A stretch of DNA of 64,000 bases from Clostridia bacterium (GTDB lineage: Bacteria > Bacillota > Peptococcia > Peptococcales > BICA1-8). Position 1 is the stretch's first letter. Each line of letters starts with the position of its first letter. The stretch covers positions 274-64,273 of the forward strand of contig JAAXZE010000068.1 of assembly GCA_012720075.1 (NCBI GenBank). The letters run 5' to 3'. Under the pieces are notes generated by a model, which worked only from the letters and a program-made list of their open reading frames with translations, ran no database searches and was not told the origin of the DNA. Positions 3,607-35,196 of this stretch are shown here, in pieces. The position numbers were made by a program, and so were the translations under genes.

Positions 3607-3867
3607 ATGAAAAATCACTTGTTTAATGTTGATGATCCGGCAGGAACGTGTATGCAGCATGGTGGCATGGGCGATTGTACCAAGTGGCCAGACTTGTTTC
3701 CTAGTCCATGCTGCTGGCTTTCTTGCAGTGAGCTTTGCGGGGCGGCGTGCTACCGTCCATTCGTTGGGCACGGCCAAAACTGCCCGGATTATGGAGGTGA
3801 GCGAAATGACGGCACAGGTATTAGTGAGCACTCTCGATATGGAGAGAAGCGAGTGGTTGGAATATAG
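3607..3867 (+). CDS. possible Cys-rich 86-aa protein
   Basis: RBS agagggag upstream. Lies in a GC-rich patch that is open in three frames and overlaps the yqaJ start. Uncertain. Confidence 0.25.
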   Translation: MKNHLFNVDDPAGTCMQHGGMGDCTKWPDLFPSPCCWLSCSELCGAACYRPFVGHGQNCPDYGGERNDGTGISEHSRYGEKRVVGI

Positions 3868-4735
3868 AAAACGCGGCATCGGTGGCAGTGATGCTGCCGC
3901 TATTGCCGGTCTTTCTCCATGGAAATCACCCATAGCTGTATGGCTAGAGAAGACCAGTCAAGTTGAACCGGAAGAGCCAGGAGAAGCGGCTTACTGGGGG
4001 AAGGTGCTGGAGGATATTGTGGCGCAGGAGTTCGCCAAGCGGACCGGTTTCAAAGTCCGCCGGCGGAATGCGATTCTTCAACACCATGAGTATCCGTGGA
4101 TGATAGCCAACGTGGATAGGCTAGTAGTTGGCGATAACGCTGGCTTAGAATGCAAGACTACCAGTGCATTCAACGCTAAAGAATGGGAACAAGACGAAGT
4201 ACCGGCGCAGTATTTAGTTCAAGTCCAGCACTATATGGCAGTTACCGGTTACTCTGCTTGGTGGCTTGCGGTCCTAATCGGTGGCAATACATTTATCTAT
4301 AAGAAAATTGAACGGGATAATGAACTTATCCAGCAACTTATCGAGATTGAAAAAGACTTCTGGGAAAATCATGTTCTAGCCGGTGTTCCGCCGGAAATGG
4401 ACGGTTCCACGGCATCTACTGAACTCTTGCAACGTATGTATCCAGAAGGAAAACCAGCCGCAATAGATCTCCCTAGTGACGCAGGTGAATTGATAGAAAC
4501 CCTGGATTTTTTGAATGAGGAACTAAAAGCACTCGAAGAACGAAAAGCAGAATGTGAGAACCGGTTGAAAGCAATGTTGGGCGAGAATGAGGCAGGCCGG
4601 TTCGGTGAACGACTTGTTACATGGAAGAATATTGTGAGTAATCGATTTGACAGCAAAACTTTCGCTAAAGATTATCCAGAGCTATATGAGAAATACTTGA
4701 AAACATCTAAATACCGGAAATTTGCAGTGAAATAG
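3806..4735 (+). CDS. YqaJ-like viral recombinase-domain exonuclease
   Basis: RSEWLEYRKRGIGGSDAAAIAGLSPWKSP...LECKT is the YqaJ/lambda-Exo-type pattern. ATG 3806 follows GGAGGTGA. The track's 3626 start looks like an over-extension. Confidence 0.85.
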   Translation: MTAQVLVSTLDMERSEWLEYRKRGIGGSDAAAIAGLSPWKSPIAVWLEKTSQVEPEEPGEAAYWGKVLEDIVAQEFAKRTGFKVRRRNAILQHHEYPWMIANVDRLVVGDNAGLECKTTSAFNAKEWEQDEVPAQYLVQVQHYMAVTGYSAWWLAVLIGGNTFIYKKIERDNELIQQLIEIEKDFWENHVLAGVPPEMDGSTASTELLQRMYPEGKPAAIDLPSDAGELIETLDFLNEELKALEERKAECENRLKAMLGENEAGRFGERLVTWKNIVSNRFDSKTFAKDYPELYEKYLKTSKYRKFAVK

Positions 4736-4746
4736 GAGGGATGAAA

Positions 4747-5547
4747 ATGGCAACTAATGAAAGCCTGAAAAACCAATTGGCTCAGCGGAAAAACGGGGGT
4801 GTATCCCCGATAAGTGGGATAAAAGCGCTACTGAATTCGGATTCAGTCAAGAAGCGTTTTGAGGAAATTTTAGAAAAGCGCGCGCCACAATATATGTCAT
4901 CCATTATTAACCTCGTTAACTCGGATACCAACCTCCAAAAGTGTGACCCGATGTCTGTTATCTCGGCTGCGATGGTAGCCGCGACGTTAGATCTGCCGGT
5001 AGACAAAAACTTAGGCTATGCATGGGTTGTGCCTTACGGAAACAAGGCACAGTTCCAGCTTGGTTATAAAGGGTACGTACAGTTAGCCCTCAGAACAGGT
5101 AAGTATCGTTCTATCAACGCAATACCGATCAGGGAAGGCGAGCTGGTGAAGTGGAACCCACTCACGGAAGAATTGGAAGTTGACTTTGAACAGCGTAAAT
5201 CTGACGCAATCATCGGTTATGCTGGATACTTTGAGTTGGTGAATGGGTTCCGCAAAACCGTGTACTGGTCAAAAGAGGAAATTGAGGCCCATAGGAAGCG
5301 GTTTTCTAAGTCTGATTTTGGATGGAAGAACGATTATGATGCAATGGCCTTGAAAACGGTTATTCGGAACATGCTGAGTAAATGGGGCATTCTCTCAATC
5401 GAGATGCAAGAGGCGTATGTAAAAGACATTGAACAAGACGAAGTTCAAGAAAAGCCAAATGATGAGCAATACATTGATGCTGAATATGTTTTCGAGGATG
5501 AGGACGAAGAAAAAGATACTGAACCAGTACAACAGACACTAGTTTAA
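4747..5547 (+). CDS. recT: RecT-family single-strand annealing protein
   Basis: LGYAWVVPYGNKAQFQLGYKGYVQLALRTGKY is RecT-like. Sits directly after the YqaJ-type exonuclease. Confidence 0.9.
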   Translation: MATNESLKNQLAQRKNGGVSPISGIKALLNSDSVKKRFEEILEKRAPQYMSSIINLVNSDTNLQKCDPMSVISAAMVAATLDLPVDKNLGYAWVVPYGNKAQFQLGYKGYVQLALRTGKYRSINAIPIREGELVKWNPLTEELEVDFEQRKSDAIIGYAGYFELVNGFRKTVYWSKEEIEAHRKRFSKSDFGWKNDYDAMALKTVIRNMLSKWGILSIEMQEAYVKDIEQDEVQEKPNDEQYIDAEYVFEDEDEEKDTEPVQQTLV

Positions 5548-5666: not shown

Positions 5667-6662
5667 GTGAGACGGAGAATGCTTAGTCCGGAATTTTTTA
5701 CAGATGCAGACATAATCGCAAACTTCGATGCCTTTGGGCGGCTATTTTATCAGGGTTTGTGGTGTATTGCAGAAGACAGCGGATGCTTTGAGATCAATCC
5801 ACTAGGGCTTAAAATGAAGATCTTTCCCGGAGATAATATTCCACTAGAACAGCTGCAGCAATACATAGAAAAGCTAATCGAATTAAACAAAGTAGTCCCC
5901 TATGAAGCTAATGGTCGCCAATATGGTTGGCTCAAGAACTTCCACAAACATCAAAGACTGGACAAGCCGTCTCCGCCAACCGTTCCTTTGCCGCCCTGGG
6001 TGAAATTCCACGGCGAAGAAGAGTTCGGGAACCAGCGACACAAATGGTACTACGAGATAATAGAACCCGTCGGGGATAATTCGGGGACATGTCGGGGAAA
6101 TGTCGTGGACGAGACCACGCCAGAAGTAAATAGAAGAGAAGAGAAAAGAAGTGAAGGGGAAAGGAATAGAAAAGATAGTCCGAACCCTCCGGGTCCGGAC
6201 GCTTCGCAGGAGCCCCAGGTGTCTCTTGATAACAACAAGAATGAGCCTAAATACACAGAAGATAGCCCACCTTACCGAGCAGCAATATATCTGCGTAATC
6301 GAATACTTGAAAATAACCCACGGGCCAGAGTACCAAACGATGACCCAGGAGACCCTCTTTTGCAAAAATGGGCCCAAGAAATGGACAGGCTTGGCCGGAT
6401 TGGTCCGCCTGGAGGAACCCGGGGTTACAGTTGGCAGGAAATCCGGGATCTGATTGACTTTTCCCAAGATGATGAGTTTTGGCGTGCAAATATCCTTTCA
6501 GCCGGGAAACTACGGGAGAAGTGTGTCCAATTGGAGAACCAAATGCGACGATGTTCTTCCAAAACTAGGGGAGATCCGACCATCCCAACCATGTCCAAGA
6601 ACGTGGCCAATGCTCTTCGCTTGGTTGAAAAATATAATCAGGAAGAGGGTGGTTATCTATGA
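5667..6662 (+). CDS. putative phage replication initiator / replisome organizer
   Basis: Call is by position, upstream of the G39P-like loader. N-terminal domain is followed by a charged low-complexity linker. Family not firmly recognised. Confidence 0.4.
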   Translation: MRRRMLSPEFFTDADIIANFDAFGRLFYQGLWCIAEDSGCFEINPLGLKMKIFPGDNIPLEQLQQYIEKLIELNKVVPYEANGRQYGWLKNFHKHQRLDKPSPPTVPLPPWVKFHGEEEFGNQRHKWYYEIIEPVGDNSGTCRGNVVDETTPEVNRREEKRSEGERNRKDSPNPPGPDASQEPQVSLDNNKNEPKYTEDSPPYRAAIYLRNRILENNPRARVPNDDPGDPLLQKWAQEMDRLGRIGPPGGTRGYSWQEIRDLIDFSQDDEFWRANILSAGKLREKCVQLENQMRRCSSKTRGDPTIPTMSKNVANALRLVEKYNQEEGGYL

Positions 6663-7186
6663 CCAAGGGTGAAGTAGCTAAACTTTTGGCAGTGCTAGCT
6701 GCTGCTTATCCAAAGTTTGAAGTGGACGATGTAAAAGTCCAGGTTTGGCACGAGATGCTTGGAGACCTGGGTTATGATGTTGCAAATATAGCAATAAAAA
6801 AACTAATCATGCAAAACACATTTCCACCGGCAATAGCTGAAGTGCGGAAAGCGGCCATTGAAATATCTTCTCCGAGGGGTTTAACGGCGGCTGAAGCATG
6901 GGGGGAAGTAGTTAAGGCTATCAGGAACTACGGCTATTACCGTGGAGAAGAGGCTTTAGCCAGCTTGTCACCAACTACCGCCCAGATAGTTCGTTATATA
7001 GGCTGGCGAGAGATTTGCTGGAATGAAGAACCGGAAATTTTACGTGCACATTTCCTGCGGATGTACGACCAGATTATTGCTAGGGAACAAGAAAAGCAAC
7101 TTTTACCTCCGGCAATGCAGGCTGAGATTAAAAAACTTGCAGATAAATTTGACCTTCGTATGATAGAAGGGGGCAAAGCCGGATGA
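6659..7186 (+). CDS. G39P-like helicase loader/inhibitor family protein
   Basis: VAKLLAVLAAAYPKFEVDD..VQVWHEMLGDLGYDVANIAIKKLI resembles the SPP1 G39P N-terminal domain. ATGA overlap with the upstream gene. Confidence 0.6.
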   Translation: MTKGEVAKLLAVLAAAYPKFEVDDVKVQVWHEMLGDLGYDVANIAIKKLIMQNTFPPAIAEVRKAAIEISSPRGLTAAEAWGEVVKAIRNYGYYRGEEALASLSPTTAQIVRYIGWREICWNEEPEILRAHFLRMYDQIIAREQEKQLLPPAMQAEIKKLADKFDLRMIEGGKAG

Positions 7187-7404
7187 TAAACAAGCGATAC
7201 CATGTCAGTAGCATATTTAGTTTGGCGGTCGAAGGCAGGGATAATCTGGAGGCCAAAGAAACTGCAGCAAGGATACTTCGATGCAGTGGGATAGATGGAA
7301 GTGTAGTTGAAGTCTGTGAGGTGAACAAAGTTGAACAAACTGATACACAAAATCACTATCCCGGGACGTCCGGTCCCAAAAGGCAGGCCACGGCTAGGAG
7401 CTAG
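7183..7404 (+). CDS. hypothetical small protein
   Basis: ATGA-coupled to the previous gene. Overlaps the rusA start by ~74 nt. Confidence 0.35.
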   Translation: MINKRYHVSSIFSLAVEGRDNLEAKETAARILRCSGIDGSVVEVCEVNKVEQTDTQNHYPGTSGPKRQATARS

Positions 7405-7699
7405 AGGGAGAAAAGCTTATGTATACACACCGCCACAAACTGTAGAGTATGAAAGAATGGTCGGATTGGTAGCGAAGGCTACCGGATGTAAGCCAACATA
7501 CGGCCCGGTGTTTGTAGCTCTTGATATATACACCCGCCGTAAAATGGACCTGGATAATGTAGCCAAAAGCATACTTGATGGGCTTAACGGCATCGCATAT
7601 GTGGACGATGATCAGGTGGTGGAGCTCCTGGTTCGGAAACACATGGTTAAAAATACGACCGAGGAACGGGTGGAAATCGAGATAAGAGAAGCTGGATAA
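7331..7699 (+). CDS. rusA: RusA-family Holliday junction resolvase
   Basis: ITIPGRPVPKGRPR...DLDNVAKSILDGLNGIAYVDDDQVVEL matches RusA. TTG start lies 7 nt after GAGGTGA. Confidence 0.85.
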   Translation: MNKLIHKITIPGRPVPKGRPRLGARGRKAYVYTPPQTVEYERMVGLVAKATGCKPTYGPVFVALDIYTRRKMDLDNVAKSILDGLNGIAYVDDDQVVELLVRKHMVKNTTEERVEIEIREAG

Positions 7700-7714
7700 A
7701 AAAGAGGTGGTTCC

Positions 7715-8128
7715 ATGAAAAAGTGGACCGATGAAATGATTATACGGGAGATTAAAAGATTGTCAAAAAACGGATATGCTCCTAATCCTAAGGAGTGTTC
7801 AAGTTTGTACTATGTCACGCAATATAAACGAAAAGGATGGTATTATTATTGCAACCTTGCAGGAGTTAAACCCAGGAATAAACCACGAAAGAAAACAAAA
7901 TACACTTCTAATTCAAAATTAAAACGGCCCAGCAACCCATACATAAAAAGGCTTGCCTATCTTTTAGGCATAGCCAGAAAATATGGCCACACAGATGGAG
8001 ATACGATTATGCGGTGCATTTATTTGGTTCATACGGGTGCTTTAGATAATCTTTTCAACATGGGGGAGGTAAAACATGAAGTTGGCAGGGATGAGTGGAA
8101 AAAGGAAAGCGAGGGCGAAAAAAAATGA
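7715..8128 (+). CDS. hypothetical protein (N-terminus resembles a homing-endonuclease-associated repeat)
   Basis: WTDEMIIREIKRLSKNGYAPNPKE...AGVKP pattern. Ends KKESEGEKK. Confidence 0.5.
   Translation: MKKWTDEMIIREIKRLSKNGYAPNPKECSSLYYVTQYKRKGWYYYCNLAGVKPRNKPRKKTKYTSNSKLKRPSNPYIKRLAYLLGIARKYGHTDGDTIMRCIYLVHTGALDNLFNMGEVKHEVGRDEWKKESEGEKK
8104..8128 (+). repeat. gene-junction cassette type 2, copy 1 (ggaaagcgagggcgaaaaaaaatga)
   Basis: ESEGE-encoding purine-rich SD block ending in an ATGA start/stop overlap. Confidence 0.7.
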
Positions 8129-8325
8129 AGCCTGATGGCGTGTCGGATGATATTTTCAATGACTTAGTAAATGCACTTGATAAAGCAATAATGCTGATAT
8201 ATGACATGTCAATAAGGAAAGTAGCATTTCCAGGCGACATGATACGCAGATGGGAGAATCTTGTTAAATATGCAAGGGCAAAGGAAAGTGAGGTCGAGCA
8301 GGATGAAGCAAATAACCAAGTATAA
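8125..8325 (+). CDS. hypothetical protein
   Basis: ATG 8125 overlaps the upstream TGA. The track start, GTG 8095, lies inside the junction cassette. Confidence 0.45.
   Translation: MKPDGVSDDIFNDLVNALDKAIMLIYDMSIRKVAFPGDMIRRWENLVKYARAKESEVEQDEANNQV
8283..8306 (+). repeat. gene-junction cassette type 2, copy 2 (ggaaagtgaggtcgagcaggatga)
   Basis: A diverged copy located immediately before ATG 8303. Confidence 0.6.
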
Positions 8326-8584
8326 ATGCGACTTCTGCAAGAGGTCATATATGAGCAAATATAAAGCAAGAGAACACGAAAATAAATGTTTCTTTAATCC
8401 TGCTGTTAAGTCCTGTGTTACATGCAGGCATGAAGATATAAAGTCAACTTTTGACGAAGAAGGAAATTGCATTGATGTTATAAGATGGTGTTTTGCAATG
8501 GAGCGTGTAATATTCTGCAAAGGTTATCCTATAAAGCATTGCACAGGTTGGCATGGGAAGGAAAGCGAGGGTGAGGAAGGATGA
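8303..8584 (+). CDS. zinc-finger protein
   Basis: YKCDFCKRSYMSKYKAREHENKC is C2H2-like, with additional Cys pairs. Ends GKESEGEEG. Confidence 0.55.
   Translation: MKQITKYKCDFCKRSYMSKYKAREHENKCFFNPAVKSCVTCRHEDIKSTFDEEGNCIDVIRWCFAMERVIFCKGYPIKHCTGWHGKESEGEEG
8560..8584 (+). repeat. gene-junction cassette type 2, copy 3 (ggaaagcgagggtgaggaaggatga)
   Basis: Same block, ending in an ATGA overlap at 8581-8584. Confidence 0.7.
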
Positions 8585-8838
8585 CACCACAAGAAATAAT
8601 CCAATGTTGTGAACGACAACTAATGCTAGGCAATCCTAACGTAGGCTTTTTGTTACCTGGAAAGTGGGGAAAACGGAACACAAGACGATTGTGGCCTGGT
8701 GGTCCAGAAGGCGAAATTGTATCAGAAATCTCAGGTAGAGGGATATATGTAATGTTTGACGCTAAAGAGGTCATGGAGGCAACAAAAAGGAAGATGAAAA
8801 AATTTGGAATGCTAGAAAGCGAGGGGAAAGAAGGATGA
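8581..8838 (+). CDS. hypothetical protein
   Basis: 85-aa ORF, ATGA-coupled. Ends LESEGKEG. Confidence 0.55.
   Translation: MTPQEIIQCCERQLMLGNPNVGFLLPGKWGKRNTRRLWPGGPEGEIVSEISGRGIYVMFDAKEVMEATKRKMKKFGMLESEGKEG
8814..8838 (+). repeat. gene-junction cassette type 2, copy 4 (agaaagcgaggggaaagaaggatga)
   Basis: The ATG at 8835 opens only a 6-codon stub (MTCKIT-stop). This is a junction with no downstream gene. Confidence 0.65.
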
Positions 8839-8913
8839 CCTGCAAAATTACTTGAAATTCTAAAAAATCATTTTCTATCATCTGCGTGATTCAGATATTT
8901 CCCTTTACAAGAC

Positions 8914-9111
8914 TTGGATTTAACCTTTACCGAAAAAGAAGTTGAAGATACTCAAGAACTTTGGAAAGCAGGAATACATATTGCGGATATGGCAAGGCAA
9001 TTAAAAAGGGAAACGGAAGAAGTGTTTATCCTGCTTTTGGATTTGGCAATGAAAAGAAAAATAAGGGAAAGAGAGAACGGAATTTTCGGTATAGACTATG
9101 AAACAGCATAA
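8914..9111 (+). CDS. putative small HTH DNA-binding protein (TTG start)
   Basis: ELWKAGIHIADMARQLKRETEEVFILL is HTH-like. Weak call. Confidence 0.4.
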   Translation: MDLTFTEKEVEDTQELWKAGIHIADMARQLKRETEEVFILLLDLAMKRKIRERENGIFGIDYETA

Positions 9112-9192
9112 AAAGCACAAAAAAATAGCCCTCTCGGGGCTGTGGTAATGATATCCAAGTACAATATACCATATCCGGGAGGGGTGGACAAT

Positions 9193-9663
9193 ATGAAATT
9201 GAAAAGAGCCGCTTATCGACATATAGAGGCGGAAATATATTCATACTATGATACATTGCGTGCTATAGAAGAATTAAGACGGGATATCATCTTAGCCGGC
9301 GGTATGCATGATGCATATGGTGCCGTGGTAGGCGATAGATACGCCGGCACCAGCATAGTCGAGCGCCGGGCTACAAAGCTGGCGGATAGTGTTTTGCTCC
9401 GGGAGATGGAACGCATTACAAAGACCATCCAGGACACTTTTGCCCAGGCAAAAGAGGAATGCCGACGAGTGGTATGGGTGAAGTACGGCTTGGCAATTGG
9501 CTGGGAACCACCGGCGGAGCTTGCAGCGCGGATGGAGGGGCGAAACCGGTTCGATATGTCGCCGGATGATATGGCGGAGGTGCTGGCGGTAGACAGGGCG
9601 ACGTTTCATAGGTATAGGAGCGGGTTTGTGTATGGGGTAGCAGAAAGGTTAGGATGGTATTGA
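9193..9663 (+). CDS. RinA-family phage late transcriptional activator
   Basis: RHIEAEIYSYYDTLRAIEELRRDII...ERRATKL...MERITKTIQ...VDRATFHRYRSGFVYGVAERLG follows the RinA pattern. ATG 9193 follows GGGAGGGGTGG. Confidence 0.7.
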   Translation: MKLKRAAYRHIEAEIYSYYDTLRAIEELRRDIILAGGMHDAYGAVVGDRYAGTSIVERRATKLADSVLLREMERITKTIQDTFAQAKEECRRVVWVKYGLAIGWEPPAELAARMEGRNRFDMSPDDMAEVLAVDRATFHRYRSGFVYGVAERLGWY

Positions 9664-9795
9664 AAGGTGGTGTTAATGTTGCAACCCATACTGAAATATC
9701 GGGCTTGAGGATTTAGGTGTGGTATTGACCAAAAACAGTTAAATTGAAAGTTTTTTATAAAAATTGTGGTTTTTATACGAGAGGAGCAGATACAG

Positions 9796-10167
9796 ATGAG
9801 AGAAATTAAGTTTAGAGGCAAGCGGTTAGATAATGGCGAATGGGTGTATGGGTTCTTAATCCAATATGAAAATGGTTGGTTTATATGTAACTTCATTGGC
9901 GATGCCTATCAATATGAAGTCGACCCATCTACCGTAGGACAGTTTACAGGCTTAAAAGATAAAAATGGGAAAGAGATTTATGAGGGAGATGTTGTCAGAA
10001 TAGATGATTTAGGTATTGGCATAGTTGATTACGAAGAGGGAAGGTTTGCTATGCGCCGAAGAGAAGAACGTTTTTGCTGGCCTGTATATTGTCGTATCGA
10101 CCATTCACCATTTGTGCCAGAGGTCATTGGCAACATCTATGAAAACCCAGAAATATTGAAGGAGTGA
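9796..10167 (+). CDS. YopX-family protein
   Basis: MREIKFRGKRLDNGEWVYG...GQFTGLKDKNGKEIYEGDVV...IGNIYENPE is the canonical YopX pattern. Confidence 0.8.
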   Translation: MREIKFRGKRLDNGEWVYGFLIQYENGWFICNFIGDAYQYEVDPSTVGQFTGLKDKNGKEIYEGDVVRIDDLGIGIVDYEEGRFAMRRREERFCWPVYCRIDHSPFVPEVIGNIYENPEILKE

Positions 10168-12241: not shown

Positions 12242-12721
12242 ATGAGTGAAAAACAAAAGAAACCAATTTATAAACGCTGGTGGTTTATCGCAATAGTAAT
12301 AGTTTTTCTAATAGGACTAATAGGTGGTGGTGGCGAAGATGAAGCAGGCCAAGATAATACAATTACAGAAGGGAAAACAGAGGAACCAGTTGAAGAAAAG
12401 AAAACAGATAATATCCCACGTGAGTACAGGAATGCCTTAAGAGCTGCACAGAACTATGTAGACATTATGCCCTTTTCTAAAAAAGGATTATTCAACCAAT
12501 TAACTTCTGAATATGGAGACCACTATCCAGAAGATGCCGCTCGATATGCAATTGAGAATGTAAAAGTAGATTGGCGTGAAGAGGCATTAGAGGCGGCTAT
12601 TAACTATCTAAAAATTATGCCTATGTCAGACAAGGAATTATTTGACCAGTTAACATCTGAATATGGGGAACAGTTTACTGAGGAAGAAGCACGGTATGCT
12701 ATTGAGAATTTACCAGATTAA
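12242..12721 (+). CDS. Ltp-like membrane-anchored superinfection-exclusion-type protein
   Basis: N-terminal TM helix (WWFIAIVIVFLIGLIGGGG) plus two tandem Ltp-type repeats (A..Y...MPFSKKGLFNQLTSEYGDHYPEDAARYAIEN / ...MPMSDKELFDQLTSEYGEQFTEEEARYAIEN). Confidence 0.7.
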   Translation: MSEKQKKPIYKRWWFIAIVIVFLIGLIGGGGEDEAGQDNTITEGKTEEPVEEKKTDNIPREYRNALRAAQNYVDIMPFSKKGLFNQLTSEYGDHYPEDAARYAIENVKVDWREEALEAAINYLKIMPMSDKELFDQLTSEYGEQFTEEEARYAIENLPD

Positions 12722-27983: not shown

Positions 27984-28388
27984 ATGATCGGTAGCTTTGG
28001 TCCGGTGGTGTTCGAAACATCAACCAAAAGAATTAGGACTTTTGATGATTTTAAGCGTTCTGGAAGTGCACGTTGGGCTACTCATGAATTAATGGGGCGT
28101 AAACCATTAAGGGAATTTTTAGGCCCCGGGTTAGAGCAAATAAGTTTTACAATTCGTCTAGATGTGTCTTTAGGTGTTAATCCTGCTCATGAATTGACAG
28201 TATTGCGCTTAATGAGAGACCAGGGTATGGCGTTTCCGTTAATTTTAGAGGGACGGCCTTTAATAGTTGGGAGTAGCTGGGTCATTGAAAGCATGAACGA
28301 AACCTGGCTTAGGGTAGATAACCGTGGTCGTTTGCTTGCGGTAGAGGTGGAACTTACTTTAAGTGAGTATCCACAGGAGGTGGTTTAA
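27984..28388 (+). CDS. gpU-like tail protein
   Basis: FETS...RTFDDFKRSGSARWATHELMGRKPLREFLGPGLEQISFTIRLD follows the P2 GpU pattern. Confidence 0.65.
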   Translation: MIGSFGPVVFETSTKRIRTFDDFKRSGSARWATHELMGRKPLREFLGPGLEQISFTIRLDVSLGVNPAHELTVLRLMRDQGMAFPLILEGRPLIVGSSWVIESMNETWLRVDNRGRLLAVEVELTLSEYPQEVV

Positions 28389-28699
28389 TGGAGTATGAAG
28401 TATTAGGGATGCCAGGAAAAATTGATTTTGCTCCAAAGAGTAAAGCACTTGAAATATTGCAAAACATAAGAACCATTATTACTACTCCAAAGTATTCAGT
28501 ACCTTTAAACAGAGATTTTGGCCTTAATATGATTTGGTTGGATGAGCCATTACCAGCTGTGCAGGCAAAATTAACGGCAGAAATTATACAAGAAGTGAGT
28601 AAATGGGAACCAAGAGCGCAAGTTACCCAGGTAGACTTTTACCAAGACCCACTAGAAGGAGTTTTGCGTCCGAAGGTGAGGGTGAGAATAGATGACTGA
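28388..28699 (+). CDS. baseplate wedge protein gpW/gp25-like
   Basis: 103 aa. ILQNIRTIITTPKYSVPLNRDFG. Confidence 0.75.
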   Translation: MEYEVLGMPGKIDFAPKSKALEILQNIRTIITTPKYSVPLNRDFGLNMIWLDEPLPAVQAKLTAEIIQEVSKWEPRAQVTQVDFYQDPLEGVLRPKVRVRIDD

Positions 28700-29798
28700 T
28701 TTAATAAAGTTTGTAGATGATGATGTTCAAAAAATAGAATCCAATATAGTTACAACTTATGAAGCTTTAGCCGGTTACACTCTTTATCCTGGGGATCCTA
28801 GGAGGCTATTTTTACAAGCTTTGGCTCAAATAATAGCTCATCAAAGGAGTTTGATTAATTACACTGGTAGGCAAAATCTTTTAAGGTATGCAGAAGAAGA
28901 TTACCTTAAAGTGATAGGAGAAGACCAGGGCGTACCTCAATTCGGACCAAGCCCTGCCAAAACAACTCTAAGGTTTACGATATCAAGAGTTCAGCAAAGT
29001 GTCGTAACAGTTCCTAAAGGTACCAGGGCAACAGCTGACGGAAAAATCTTTTTTGCAACAACAGAAACAGGGGAAATACCTATAGGAGAGTTAAGTGTTG
29101 ATGTGCCAGCAGAATGTACTGTAAGTGGTGAGATAGGTAATGGTTTTCTTCCAGGACAAATAAACAGGATTGTGGACCCATTCCCTTTATTTCAGTCTGT
29201 TATGAATGTTACAGAATCACAAGGTGGAGCGGATTTAGAGGATACAGAAATATATCGGGAAAGAATAAGACAAAGCAATGAAGGCTACTCTACTGCTGGT
29301 CCATATGAAGCCTATAAATATTGGGCAAAAATGGCCTCACCAGCCATTATTGATGTTGAGCCTATGAGTCCTGTCCCTGGAGTTGTTCAGCTTTGGATAT
29401 TAATGAAGAATGGGGAATCTCCAACCCAAGATATTTTAGATGCGGTTTTAGAAGTATGTAGCGACAGAACAAAGAGGCCCTTAACGGATAATGTAATCGT
29501 GTCAGCAAGGGAAGAAGTGAATTATGATATTGAAGTTTTATACTGGATAGACGAAAATGATGCTGCTAGGGCATTAGAAATTCAAAATGCAGTTCACCAG
29601 GCTGTAGCAGATTATGAGCTTTGGCAAAAGTCAAAGTTAGGAAGAGACATAGACCCTTCGGAATTGAATTACAGGATTAAGCAAGTCGGTGCCAAAAGAG
29701 TGCAAATAAATTTGCCGGCTTATACCAAAATTGAATCTCATCAGGTTGCAATTGCGATAAATAAGAATGTTAGTTATCAAGGGTTAGAAGGTGAATAG
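28692..29798 (+). CDS. baseplate J-like protein
   Basis: 368 aa, with the expected size, position and sequence character. Confidence 0.8.
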   Translation: MTDLIKFVDDDVQKIESNIVTTYEALAGYTLYPGDPRRLFLQALAQIIAHQRSLINYTGRQNLLRYAEEDYLKVIGEDQGVPQFGPSPAKTTLRFTISRVQQSVVTVPKGTRATADGKIFFATTETGEIPIGELSVDVPAECTVSGEIGNGFLPGQINRIVDPFPLFQSVMNVTESQGGADLEDTEIYRERIRQSNEGYSTAGPYEAYKYWAKMASPAIIDVEPMSPVPGVVQLWILMKNGESPTQDILDAVLEVCSDRTKRPLTDNVIVSAREEVNYDIEVLYWIDENDAARALEIQNAVHQAVADYELWQKSKLGRDIDPSELNYRIKQVGAKRVQINLPAYTKIESHQVAIAINKNVSYQGLEGE

Positions 29799-35121: not shown

Positions 35122-35196
35122 GGCGACATAGCCAAGTGGTAAGGCGAAGGACCGCAAGTCCTTGATCCCCTTGTTCGACTCAGGGTGTCGCCTCCA
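35122..35196 (+). tRNA. tRNA-Cys (anticodon GCA) with encoded CCA
   Basis: Hand fold: acceptor GGCGACA/TGTCGCC; D arm GCC-AAGTGGTAA-GGC; anticodon arm AAGGA-CCGCAAG-TCCTT; T arm CCTTG-TTCGACT-CAGGG. Position 33 is C rather than U. Confidence 0.8.

Follow-up and report, generated by a model that had tools for sequence, protein, structure and literature searches.

A repeated stop-start junction between small genes of a Clostridia prophage, a probable short homology for single-gene cassette exchange

Introduction

It is a long-standing idea that short boundary sequences drive the mosaicism of phage genomes. In the modular theory of phage evolution, it took the form of the linker sequences proposed for lambdoid phages (refs 21-22 in PMC3029335), which the cited part of PMC3029335 presents as short sequences at the borders of unrelated modules, where homology breaks and where homologous recombination is thought to be responsible. 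In T4-type phages, the repeated regulatory motifs named PeSLs flank small, non-essential ORFan genes in hyperplastic regions, and recombination between PeSL copies leads to the insertion, deletion or replacement of single genes (PMC2839356, PMC4122927). In Cluster K mycobacteriophages, according to the cited part of PMC3203893, the SAS repeats are asymmetric, have a Shine-Dalgarno (SD) core, lie in one orientation just upstream of mostly ATG starts, belong only to non-structural genes of different families, are absent from the host, and in some cases hold the upstream stop codon inside the repeat. Integron cassettes, in turn, form one-orientation arrays of promoterless single genes with a repeated site of gain and loss (attC), and ordinary ATGA-coupled genes carry the SD of the downstream gene inside the upstream one.

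These likenesses meet in the junction element described here, which lies in a prophage inside the window, by which we mean the whole 64-kb stretch of DNA that was analysed. The family to which it belongs is an unusually clean natural case of a boundary sequence, in which one junction recurs at dozens of gene borders and cassettes of a single gene move between otherwise unalignable phages.

Results

Four copies of one junction in the window

Pattern searches of the 64-kb window bore out the core shared by four gene junctions that a preliminary description had proposed, in three exact copies and one diverged: GAAAGCGAGGG occurs at 8105-8115, 8561-8571 and 8815-8825, with no further exact copy on either strand of the 64 kb, and the diverged core GAAAGTGAGGT lies at 8284-8294. 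The 24-nt pattern GAAAGYGAGGNNGANNNNGGATGA, with up to three mismatches, gave 4 matches against 0.04 expected from shuffles, namely junction copies 1, 3 and 4 and position 28672, copy 2 being recovered by the core search instead. The match at 28672 is an SD-like look-alike only. Elsewhere in the window, in prophage and host DNA alike, the motif does not occur, and its four copies are asymmetric, all on the coding strand in a single orientation, and confined to a 750-bp array in which one small gene stands between consecutive copies.

Each copy forms the final codons of the preceding gene and is followed by an ATG 9-10 nt downstream (10, 9, 10 and 10 nt from the core for copies 1 to 4). Copy 1 (8103-8128, plus strand like the others; AG-GAAAGCGAGG-GCGAAAAAAA-ATGA) ends orf137 with the tail ESEGEKK and a TGA, contains the SD-like core, and starts orf66 at an ATG that overlaps this TGA. 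Copy 3 (8559-8584; AG-GAAAGCGAGG-GTGAGGAAGG-ATGA) matches the consensus perfectly and joins the tail ESEGEEG and stop of orf93 to the start of orf85, and copy 4 (8813-8838; TA-GAAAGCGAGG-GGAAAGAAGG-ATGA), the orphan terminal junction, supplies the tail ESEGKEG and stop of orf85. The tails KKESEGEKK, GKESEGEEG and MLESEGKEG are as previously reported, and so are the overlaps of start and stop in ATGA at copies 1, 3 and 4 (8125, 8581 and 8835), with the correction that copy 4 begins AGAAAG and not GGAAAG. Copy 2 (8282-8306; AG-GAAAGTGAGG-TCGAGCAGG-ATGA) has diverged and also ends in ATGA (8303-8306), with the upstream stop, TAA at 8323-8325, falling 20 nt later; since its spacer is 1 nt shorter, orf66 misses the TGA, reads on to this TAA and overlaps orf93 by 23 nt. 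The start of orf93 at 8303 is backed by homologues that align from residue 1.

Across the family, the conserved unit measures about 24-26 nt, with information content rising at position -2 and ending at the start codon, and its purine-rich consensus is AR-GAAAGYGAGG-KY-GAGGAAGR-ATGA. Positions 10-11 and 19 vary within the motif, the former being a variable central dinucleotide, and two alternative 3' halves occur, …GAGGAAGRATGA or …GAACACGATGCC. About 30 nt on the 5' side of copy 1 (8072-8102, encoding ...GRDEWKK) are also common to unrelated genes of the related loci L020, L028 and L032.

Genes of the array and its surroundings

The gene that precedes the array, orf137 (7715-8128, plus strand), has its own ordinary SD, AAGAGGTGG, and no assigned family, and only its last approximately 15 codons resemble genes of other phages. 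Three cassette genes follow on the same strand, all with no function assigned. The first, orf66 (8125-8325, family F34), has similar DNA in L037 (8102-8315, 79%) and in L040, in differing contexts. The second, orf93 (8303-8584, family F10), encodes a Cys-rich, zinc-ribbon-like protein, of which a homologue in L001 (64% amino acid identity) has neither the motif nor the ESEGEEG tail. The third, orf85 (8581-8838, family F6), is the clearest mobile cassette, being 86-97.5% identical in L006/7, L008, L010, L011 and L047, with different neighbours each time; its only exact-protein match was a 1.2-kb read-assembly contig that added no gene context. Pfam and PHROGs searches with the cassette genes gave either no match or families of "unknown function" only.

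About 3 kb upstream of the array lie the genes of a YqaJ-type exonuclease (3626-4735, plus strand; Pfam YqaJ, 3.9e-44) and of a RecT single-strand annealing protein (4741-5547, plus strand; Pfam RecT, 1.1e-52), RecT being confirmed in the prophage of the window only. The neighbours of the array comprise RusA, an HTH protein and an ArpU-like regulator.

The orphan fourth copy

The ATG of copy 4 opens only the six-codon stub MTCKIT (8835-8855, plus strand), after which, as first described, come a 58-nt spacer and a TTG-started ORF, an HTH gene (phrog_3356; 8914-9111, plus strand) that lacks an SD and is not part of the cassette system. The promoter scan found no promoter-like or terminator-like site at any of the four copies, and the sole promoter-like site on the plus strand comes after the last of them, TTGAAA-18-TATCAT at 8852-8881, with a score of 10/12; judged from its hexamers, this site may act as a promoter. 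Together with the 3' half of the junction, the stub and the promoter-like site form an end-of-array block (8823-8898, plus strand), which shares 94.7% identity with L031 1555-1630 and is partially matched in L027; in L031 the same stub stands behind another gene. At the stub, an orphan junction that ends the array is fused to a conserved block resembling a promoter. Such an orphan is expected anyway, since the final cassette takes its last codons and its stop from the junction; the fourth copy would have been brought by the last cassette, and would lead into the stub and a promoter-like block starting the next operon.

The earlier suggestion that the stub marks a junction left behind by gene loss stays plausible, tempered by the finding that the stub and its block are themselves a conserved module. 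Descent of the stub from a member of the MTCKECLYY family (F3), suggested by the shared ATGAC-TGCAAA, was also considered and was rejected, since the promoter block of L027 already starts at AAAATTACTTGAAAT; with about 4 of 5 diagnostic bases left and some 40 candidate families, the resemblance is not significant.

Translation signal and conservation at the nucleotide level

The 5' block GAAAG.GAGG is predicted to pair with the anti-SD at -13.7 to -15.5 kcal/mol, with the Y bulged, the anti-SD used being that of general Firmicute 16S rRNA and not of this host; read without the bulged Y, the core would be a perfect GAAAGGAGG. Elsewhere in this prophage, genes rely on different SD words with equal predicted strength, and the possibility of a super-strong SD was ruled out, because the energies fall within the normal range for this prophage. 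The start spacing and the predicted pairing fit the reading of the junction as an SD with ATGA coupling, as originally put forward. There is no conserved RNA hairpin at the copies, the predicted pairing probability in the motif (0.38-0.51) being slightly lower than in its flanks (approximately 0.52-0.58); inverted repeats or dyad symmetry were not found at the copies, and Rfam 15 gave no match up to E = 1 for 7000-10000.

The ESE frame is used in 64/71 copies with a long upstream ORF and another frame in 7/71, and this frame-0 bias of the tails arises because the TGA of ATGA sits in that frame. Nevertheless, what is conserved is the element as DNA and not as peptide. The codons GAA-AGY-GAG are found in 60/67 ESE tails against about 10% expected from codon usage, and serine TCN is almost absent from these tails. 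Moreover, about 12 copies have no long upstream ORF, and those at L008 1504 and L011 2889 stand directly after a TAA. These frozen synonymous codons, together with the copies that follow a stop or lie in another frame, argue against a shared C-terminal domain as the source of the repeats, an explanation that the preliminary description had named and that fails also on the proteins themselves, which have only the 6-7-residue tail in common and whose homologues outside the system differ at that point.

Spread of the element in related phages

No match was found in a cultured-phage database, either with positions 7300-9700 of the window in distant mode or with positions 1-25000 in near mode, so that all the comparative evidence comes from IMG/VR contigs and metagenome-assembled genomes (MAGs). 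There the element occupies the corresponding junctions of related phages, contrary to the absence from relatives that the preliminary description had named as a refutation. It was found in several Clostridia MAG prophages and in 33 IMG/VR contigs; every copy lies on the coding strand, and all copies within a locus have one orientation. We counted 87 unique copies in 33 non-redundant sequences, with 2-6 copies per genome. After 75 of the 87, a start codon opens an ORF of at least 30 codons, and these 75 all have an SD-to-start spacing of 7-13 nt (9-10 nt in 62), with an ATG start in 70 and ATGA in 47. In 32 copies a frame-0 stop falls at +21, and in another 10 at +24. The genes downstream of the motif belong to at least 22 unrelated families of small genes. 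Strong SD-like look-alikes were also seen in unrelated bacteria, in OCS116/PS1 alphaproteobacteria and in Fictibacillus.

The other repeat family of this region, the type-1 cassette (CAACCGGTACTGATGGGTAGGGGGTGA; 429, 916, 1283 and 1989), behaved differently: its degenerate pattern was unmatched in IMG/VR and in the fetched loci, which leaves unsupported the earlier generalisation from two cassette families.

Cassette boundaries and gene exchange

The shuffling of genes proposed at the outset is borne out by alignment breakpoints at the motif edges and by an indel of exactly one cassette. The segment 8561-8838 is 97.5% identical to L006/L007, 95.6% to L047 and 86% to L011, exactly from motif to motif, with nothing alignable on either flank in those phages; copies 3 and 4 are the left and right edges of this common cassette. 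L016 and L058 differ by a single unit of 271 nt, made of the motif and a 91-codon gene, between flanks that are 90-93% identical. In family F3, the motif is upstream of 9/9 members, behind 8 different upstream neighbours. Homologues of cassette genes outside the system have other tails, ordinary ribosome-binding sites and no motif. The exchanged genes are single genes of 55-140 codons.

In a wider count, alignment (HSP) ends fell within 5 nt of a motif edge in 133/466 cases on the left and 98/491 on the right, together about a quarter of all breakpoints against 0.5% at random, figures to be read with the fact that every cassette carries the motif, so that BLAST alignments reach its outer edge whatever the joining mechanism. 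A breakpoint was found at 72% of motif-bearing starts versus 11-16% of other starts, a difference of about 5-fold (p = 2e-28), the share at motifs being inflated because most loci were gathered by the motif itself or by cassette-gene homologues. Some boundaries lie outside the motif, as at the tail of orf137 and in L009, where only the 3' half of the motif is kept, and so microhomology or illegitimate events also occur.

The -2/-1 dinucleotide tracks the upstream family (p < 0.001) and the inner positions are ambiguous; a weak linkage test of the variable motif positions gave no clean split into "upstream-linked" and "downstream-linked" halves. For Red-beta, the shortest segment that pairs efficiently is reported to be 23-27 bp (PMC3945230), which matches the length of this element. 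For annealing recombinases, 24 nt of imperfect identity is at the lower limit.

Discussion

The junction as a standard joint

Most likely, the element is a standardised SD/stop-start junction that doubles as a short homology for the exchange of single-gene cassettes, and we hold this reading with good though not full confidence. The 5' block GAAAG(Y)GAGG would work as the SD, with the next gene starting at the ATG 9-10 nt on, and the TGA overlapping this ATG stops the previous gene, whose last seven codons are the junction itself (ESE-G/V-EEG). Since upstream stop, SD and downstream start are all held in one junction, the translation of each small gene would be coupled to that of the preceding one. 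Each cassette of these phages has this junction at both of its ends, and a crossover anywhere inside it could join any two genes while keeping the upstream frame, the stop, the ribosome-binding site and the start intact. In this way, the junction would serve as a linker for the swap, insertion or deletion of single small accessory genes between related phages, probably by means of the phage's own RecT/YqaJ annealing recombination system, as the gene content of the prophage suggests.

Alternative explanations

The translational part of this reading could in principle suffice alone, the motif being kept for expression while illegitimate or microhomology exchange happens anywhere and selection retains the joints that fall at gene boundaries. 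This account is unlikely, yet it draws on several facts: SD-like look-alikes arise independently, in the OCS116/PS1 alphaproteobacteria, in Fictibacillus and at position 28672 of the window; some boundaries do lie outside the motif; and phage mosaics are commonly joined at gene boundaries without any sequence in common (PMC3029335). Nevertheless, the equally strong but different SDs of the same prophage indicate that expression alone does not require a 24-nt word, and selection for expression does not account for the identity at non-SD positions or for the frozen synonymous codons. Breakpoints, moreover, are some five times commoner at starts that carry the motif than at nearby starts that lack it, and an indel of exactly one unit between two copies is what recombination between direct repeats classically produces. 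The peptide could instead be what is selected, with ESE(G/V)EEG as a functional acidic C-terminal tag (for solubility, degradation or partner binding) and the DNA identity as a by-product. The uniformly acidic tails and the prevalence of the ESE frame agree with such a tag, but that prevalence follows automatically from the TGA of ATGA, and the codon bias, the copies after stop codons or in other frames, and the unrelated tails of homologues outside the system make it a very remote prospect. Even less can be said for local tandem duplication, with the four genes as diverged paralogues and the repeats as its remains: the units are direct, evenly oriented and similarly small, but the four proteins have no similarity beyond the 6-7-residue tail and each gene has its own homologues elsewhere, in differing contexts, so that this origin is effectively refuted.

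Two further proposals involve a factor that recognises the motif, and both appear improbable to us. In one, the motif is operator-like, bound as RNA or DNA by a trans-acting protein or small RNA that co-regulates the small early genes, for instance a RegA-like translational repressor or, at a stoperator-like site, a protein silencing the array in the lysogen. The strictly single orientation, the limitation to one gene class, the absence from the remaining prophage and host DNA, and a conservation beyond what anti-SD pairing needs, as is argued for the SAS in the cited part of PMC3203893, would all suit an operator. On the other hand, no candidate factor was found, there is no dyad symmetry, RNA structure or Rfam family, and the variable central dinucleotide and two 3' halves leave only the SD-like 10-mer invariant; in addition, an operator by itself leaves the breakpoints unexplained. 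In the other, for which we see only a slim chance, the junction is a dedicated cis-element recognised by a phage-encoded factor, either a recombination mediator or a translational regulator. If this were true, the locus would be an integron-like, translation-coupled "plug-and-play" array, with gain and loss actively promoted at the motif, and the array genes would be small accessory genes, possibly with anti-defence or host-takeover roles.

Returning to the junction as a coupling signal and short homology in one, its holding of stop, SD and start, by which any inside crossover would be expressible, would make it a natural "standard assembly part". It also offers a testable case of short-homology recombination making new phage gene combinations, within limits set by junction length and sequence, and the motif is a handle for mining the small accessory genes of uncultured Clostridia phages.

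Comparison with known systems

Compared with the modular-theory linkers, as they appear in the cited part of PMC3029335, the linker here is coding and translational, made of tail codons, SD, stop and start, and it is repeated at every junction of the array, where single genes are moved rather than functional modules. The SAS of Cluster K, in the cited part of PMC3203893, has the sequence GGGATAGGAGCCC of 13 bp, belongs to phages of another host phylum and numbers 11-19 copies per genome against the 2-6 found here; its positions unable to pair with rRNA are conserved, and it often has an upstream inverted repeat (ESAS). Given that the present motif differs in sequence from GGGATAGGAGCCC, it is not an SAS member and the resemblance is functional only. 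That part of PMC3203893 describes no cassette-exchange role for the SAS, and the element here is longer, mostly coding and located at mosaic breakpoints. PeSLs come close in their effect on gene content, but each is an intergenic transcriptional unit with a sigma-70 promoter and a terminator hairpin (PMC2839356, PMC4122927), whereas the present motif, which lies within the upstream ORF, contains neither promoter hexamers nor a hairpin and is, by its predicted pairing, translational.

The stoperators of Cluster A mycobacteriophages are many asymmetric repressor-bound sites spread genome-wide; the copies in the window are asymmetric, lie in one orientation and are confined to their 750-bp array. 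Integrons, whose attC sites are imperfect inverted repeats that fold as single strands and go with a tyrosine integrase, differ in that the motif here is all purine on one strand, with no attC-like imperfect palindrome, and in that no integron integrase was seen beside the array, the exchange being more probably homologous than site-specific. Finally, with ordinary ATGA-coupled junctions the element shares an identical anatomy and an ordinary predicted SD strength, but such junctions are unlike each other beyond 4-6 nt of SD, whereas here 24-26 nt are common to dozens of unrelated junctions across many genomes.

Junction Copies in the Early Region of the Prophage

The window opens with a prophage of ~35 kb that has a Firmicute/Clostridia-type host; its early genes all lie on the + strand, terminase and structural genes follow them, and a tRNA-Cys (GCA) gene about its right end (35122-35196) may be the attachment site. 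The YqaJ exonuclease (3626-4735), RecT (4741-5547), the replication initiator (5667-6662; family F15 in our comparison), the helicase loader (6659-7186) and RusA (7331-7699) precede an array of small genes without family assignment, namely orf137 (7715-8128), orf66 (8125-8325), orf93 (8303-8584) and orf85 (8581-8838), which is followed by a putatively TTG-started HTH gene at 8914 that has no Shine-Dalgarno sequence (SD) and may start elsewhere or be leaderless, an ArpU/RinA-like regulator (9193-9663) and YopX, likewise among the early genes. Further on, an Ltp-type lipoprotein gene (12242-12721, 159 aa) contains a 111-nt direct repeat (12452-12562 and 12602-12712, 74% identity) whose units correspond to its two Lipoprotein_Ltp domains, so that a superinfection-exclusion protein with an internal duplication is probable.

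The preliminary description of a four-copy, purine-rich junction in the array, with ESEGE-type protein tails, is essentially right. Exact GAAAGCGAGGG lies at 8105, 8561 and 8815 and a diverged GAAAGTGAGGT at 8284, with no further exact copy of the former on either strand of the whole 64 kb; only 0.04 chance matches to the 24-nt pattern are expected from shuffles, and a repeat finder clusters the copies together. The junction is a real, non-random element. The copies encode the final codons of the preceding gene (ESEGEKK-stop, ESEGEEG-stop and ESEGKEG-stop), and in every copy an ATG lies 9-10 nt past GAGG. This ATG lies within ATGA, as had been described, and overlaps the stop of the preceding gene in copies 1, 3 and 4; in copy 2 the spacer is 1 nt shorter, so that TGA falls out of frame and orf66 continues to 8325, 23 nt into orf93. 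The orf93 start at 8303 is backed by homologues aligning from residue 1. The ATG of copy 4 indeed opens only the six-codon stub MTCKIT-stop (8835-8855). In the structural region, GAAGGTGAGGGTGAGAATAGATGA at 28672-28695, between genes 28388-28699 and 28692-29798, agrees at 20 of 24 consensus positions; its core differs, and it is therefore probably an independent SD/ATGA junction outside this family.

Conservation of the Junction in Related Phages

We found no cultured phages resembling the array region. IMG/VR contigs with orf93 and orf85 homologues carry this motif at several of their junctions, and a scan for GAAAGYGAGGNNGAGGAAGRATGA gave 33 IMG/VR contigs and 20 genome contigs, the latter with arrays in five Clostridiales or Clostridiaceae MAG contigs and one binned as Bacteroidales, the remainder being lone SD-like look-alikes in unrelated bacteria. 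The motif is thus present in related regions, with 87 unique copies in 33 sequences after redundancy removal and uniform orientation within each locus. Downstream of 75 of the 87, a start codon heads an ORF no shorter than 30 codons; of these 75 copies, 62 have a 9-10-nt spacing, 70 use ATG and 47 show ATGA. The 3' end has two flavours, …KYGAGGAAGRATGA and …TCGAACACGATGCCTAA, and information content rises abruptly at -2 and stops at the start codon, with flanks lacking conservation. Motif-like sequences followed by short ORFs only were also seen after a repeated …TAGGTAGGCTAAAAAC… segment, in two copies ~4.5 kb apart, in a Bacillota MAG (locus L063, 2518-2577 and 7078-7137) and a Thermoanaerobacteraceae MAG (L050, ~3606 and 5862); these could belong to another kind of repeated or mobile element that has merely an SD-like word in common with the junction.

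A shared C-terminal protein domain does not fully explain the junction, because the part common to the four window proteins is a 6-7-residue tail only, its codons are frozen, and some copies are read in another frame. The peptide ESE, present in 67 ORF tails, is spelled GAA-AGY-GAG in 60, against ~10% expected from background codon usage (GAA 65%, AGY 44% of Ser, GAG 35%); of the 71 copies preceded by a long ORF, 7 are read in a different frame, and about 12 copies lack such an ORF, for example those immediately 3' of TAA in L008 (1504) and L011 (2889). Outside the system, the orf93 homologue of L001 ends in …GWEREEDDDVLN with a different ribosome-binding site, and the orf85 homologue of L013 has an intergenic GGAGG and another tail, while a homologue in L009 keeps the 3' half of the junction, the remainder being absent. 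The junction is conserved as a nucleotide element and not as a protein domain.

Single-Gene Cassettes Bounded by the Junction

Window segment 8561-8838, which runs from the opening base of copy 3 through the final base of copy 4, shares 97.5% identity with L006/L007, 95.6% with L047 and 86-88% with L008, L010 and L011, with no alignable sequence on either flank and different neighbour genes; orf66 likewise behaves as a cassette, matching L037 over 8102-8315. Across all pairwise alignments between loci that span 100 nt or more, 133 of 466 left ends fall no further than 5 nt from a motif start and 98 of 491 right ends no further than 5 nt from a motif end (random expectation 0.5% for both), and a breakpoint occurs at 72% of motif-bearing starts vs. 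11% of other starts, or 16% of those within 3 kb, an enrichment that is real but inflated, given that loci were gathered via the motif or cassette genes and any cassette alignment reaches the outer edge of the common motif. At least 22 gene families, besides singletons, lie downstream of the motif, and all nine members of family F3 (MTCKECLYY…, ~60 aa) have it upstream, with eight different upstream neighbours. L016 and L058, with 90-93% identical flanks, differ solely by one 271-nt unit, the motif plus a 91-codon gene, sitting between two motif copies. These breakpoints and this one-unit indel bear out the proposed shuffling, and the junction bounds mobile single-gene cassettes.

Exchange also reaches beyond the motif. 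In an extended flavour of the junction, the ~30 nt that precede copy 1 (8072-8102, …GCAGGGATGARTGGAAAAAG, peptide GRDEWKK) recur at the 3' ends of genes in L020, L028 and L032 that are unrelated in other respects, the L032 gene (329 aa) belonging to F15 like the window's replication initiator. This suggests chimeric C-termini that arose from crossovers a short way 5' of the motif; in L009, the joint lies inside the motif. In L009, moreover, the orf85 homologue breaks off at a short repeat, AATCTATCGGCRAGG, found again 450 nt upstream (sites 1880-1900 and 2337-2352), which looks like a microhomology-mediated rearrangement.

The End of the Array

Segment 8823-8898, comprising the 3' half of the junction, MTCKIT-stop and a promoter-like TTGAAA-18-TATCAT (8852-8881), recurs in L031 at 94.7% identity behind another gene and partially in L027, the promoter-like site being conserved in both ahead of different downstream genes. 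Since it recurs behind a different gene, we read it as a module closing the array and probably starting the next transcription unit. The stub had been taken for a junction left after gene loss: the orphan junction exists, and one is expected at any array end because the junction supplies the final cassette's last codons and stop, but that the stub descends from an MTCKEC… gene since lost is possible, though not significant. Other orphan or decayed junctions lie in L058 (1563), L014 (2165), L051 (5243) and L008 (1306). The L008 copy (1306-1330, flavour B) has no start codon, and the upstream ORF goes on through it for 180 nt more; in L006/L007 (3630/3752), ATG has decayed to ATA, with a new ATG 7 nt downstream.

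Ribosome Binding and Proposed Mechanism

Once the bulged Y is left out, GAAAG-GAGG(T) complements the 3' terminus of Firmicute 16S rRNA. Predicted junction/anti-SD duplexes reach -13.7 to -15.5 kcal/mol, within the -11 to -21 kcal/mol of other prophage genes, whose SD words differ (GGGGGTGA or GGAGGTG, for example), and the junction is thus predicted to be an SD of ordinary strength. SD function accounts for the core and fixed spacing, but not for the common 24-26-mer; no Rfam family, inverted repeat or distinctive RNA structure was found in the junction. Elsewhere, a repeat at 1645-1715 and 2472-2541 (92% identical, 826 nt apart) has in each copy a predicted long-range hairpin with anti-SD-like ACCUCCCUU and SD-like AAGGGGAGGU arms (z about -2.5; -17.4 and -18.1 kcal/mol), and may sequester an SD or act like a terminator in the immunity or early region; a third, less similar match (8053-8078) is probably a mere SD-like word within orf137.

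Beyond its observed anatomy, conservation and cassette behaviour, we infer that the junction couples the translation of each gene to the next and supplies homology for cassette exchange. A crossover anywhere within it would keep the upstream frame and stop together with the downstream SD and start, so that every recombinant would be expressible. The prophage encodes both RecT and YqaJ; Rad52-like recombinases recombine sequences that are short and diverged, and for Red-beta the smallest segment reported to pair, 23-27 bp, is the size of the junction (PMC3945230). The junction is of value as a clean case in which the shuffling of single genes through short homology can be tested for uncultured Clostridia phages.

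Comparison with Type 1 and Known Systems

The type 1 junction (CAACCGGTACTGATGGGTAGGGGGTGA; 429-455, 916-942, 1283-1309 and 1989-2015) similarly combines conserved last codons, stop, SD and start. Nothing in IMG/VR or the fetched loci matches the degenerate pattern of this junction, so type 1 is not family-wide as the present junction is, and the general mechanism proposed from two cassette families is not backed for type 1. The features that define an integron attC site are absent from the junction. It shares position, orientation and gene class with the SAS of Cluster K mycobacteriophages, but differs in sequence and host and is not a member, and the portion of that account considered here describes no link to breakpoints (PMC3203893). 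It works like the PeSLs of T4-type phages, although these are promoter-terminator units (PMC2839356) and the junction is translational and mostly coding, and like the boundary/linker sequences of modular theory (PMC3029335).
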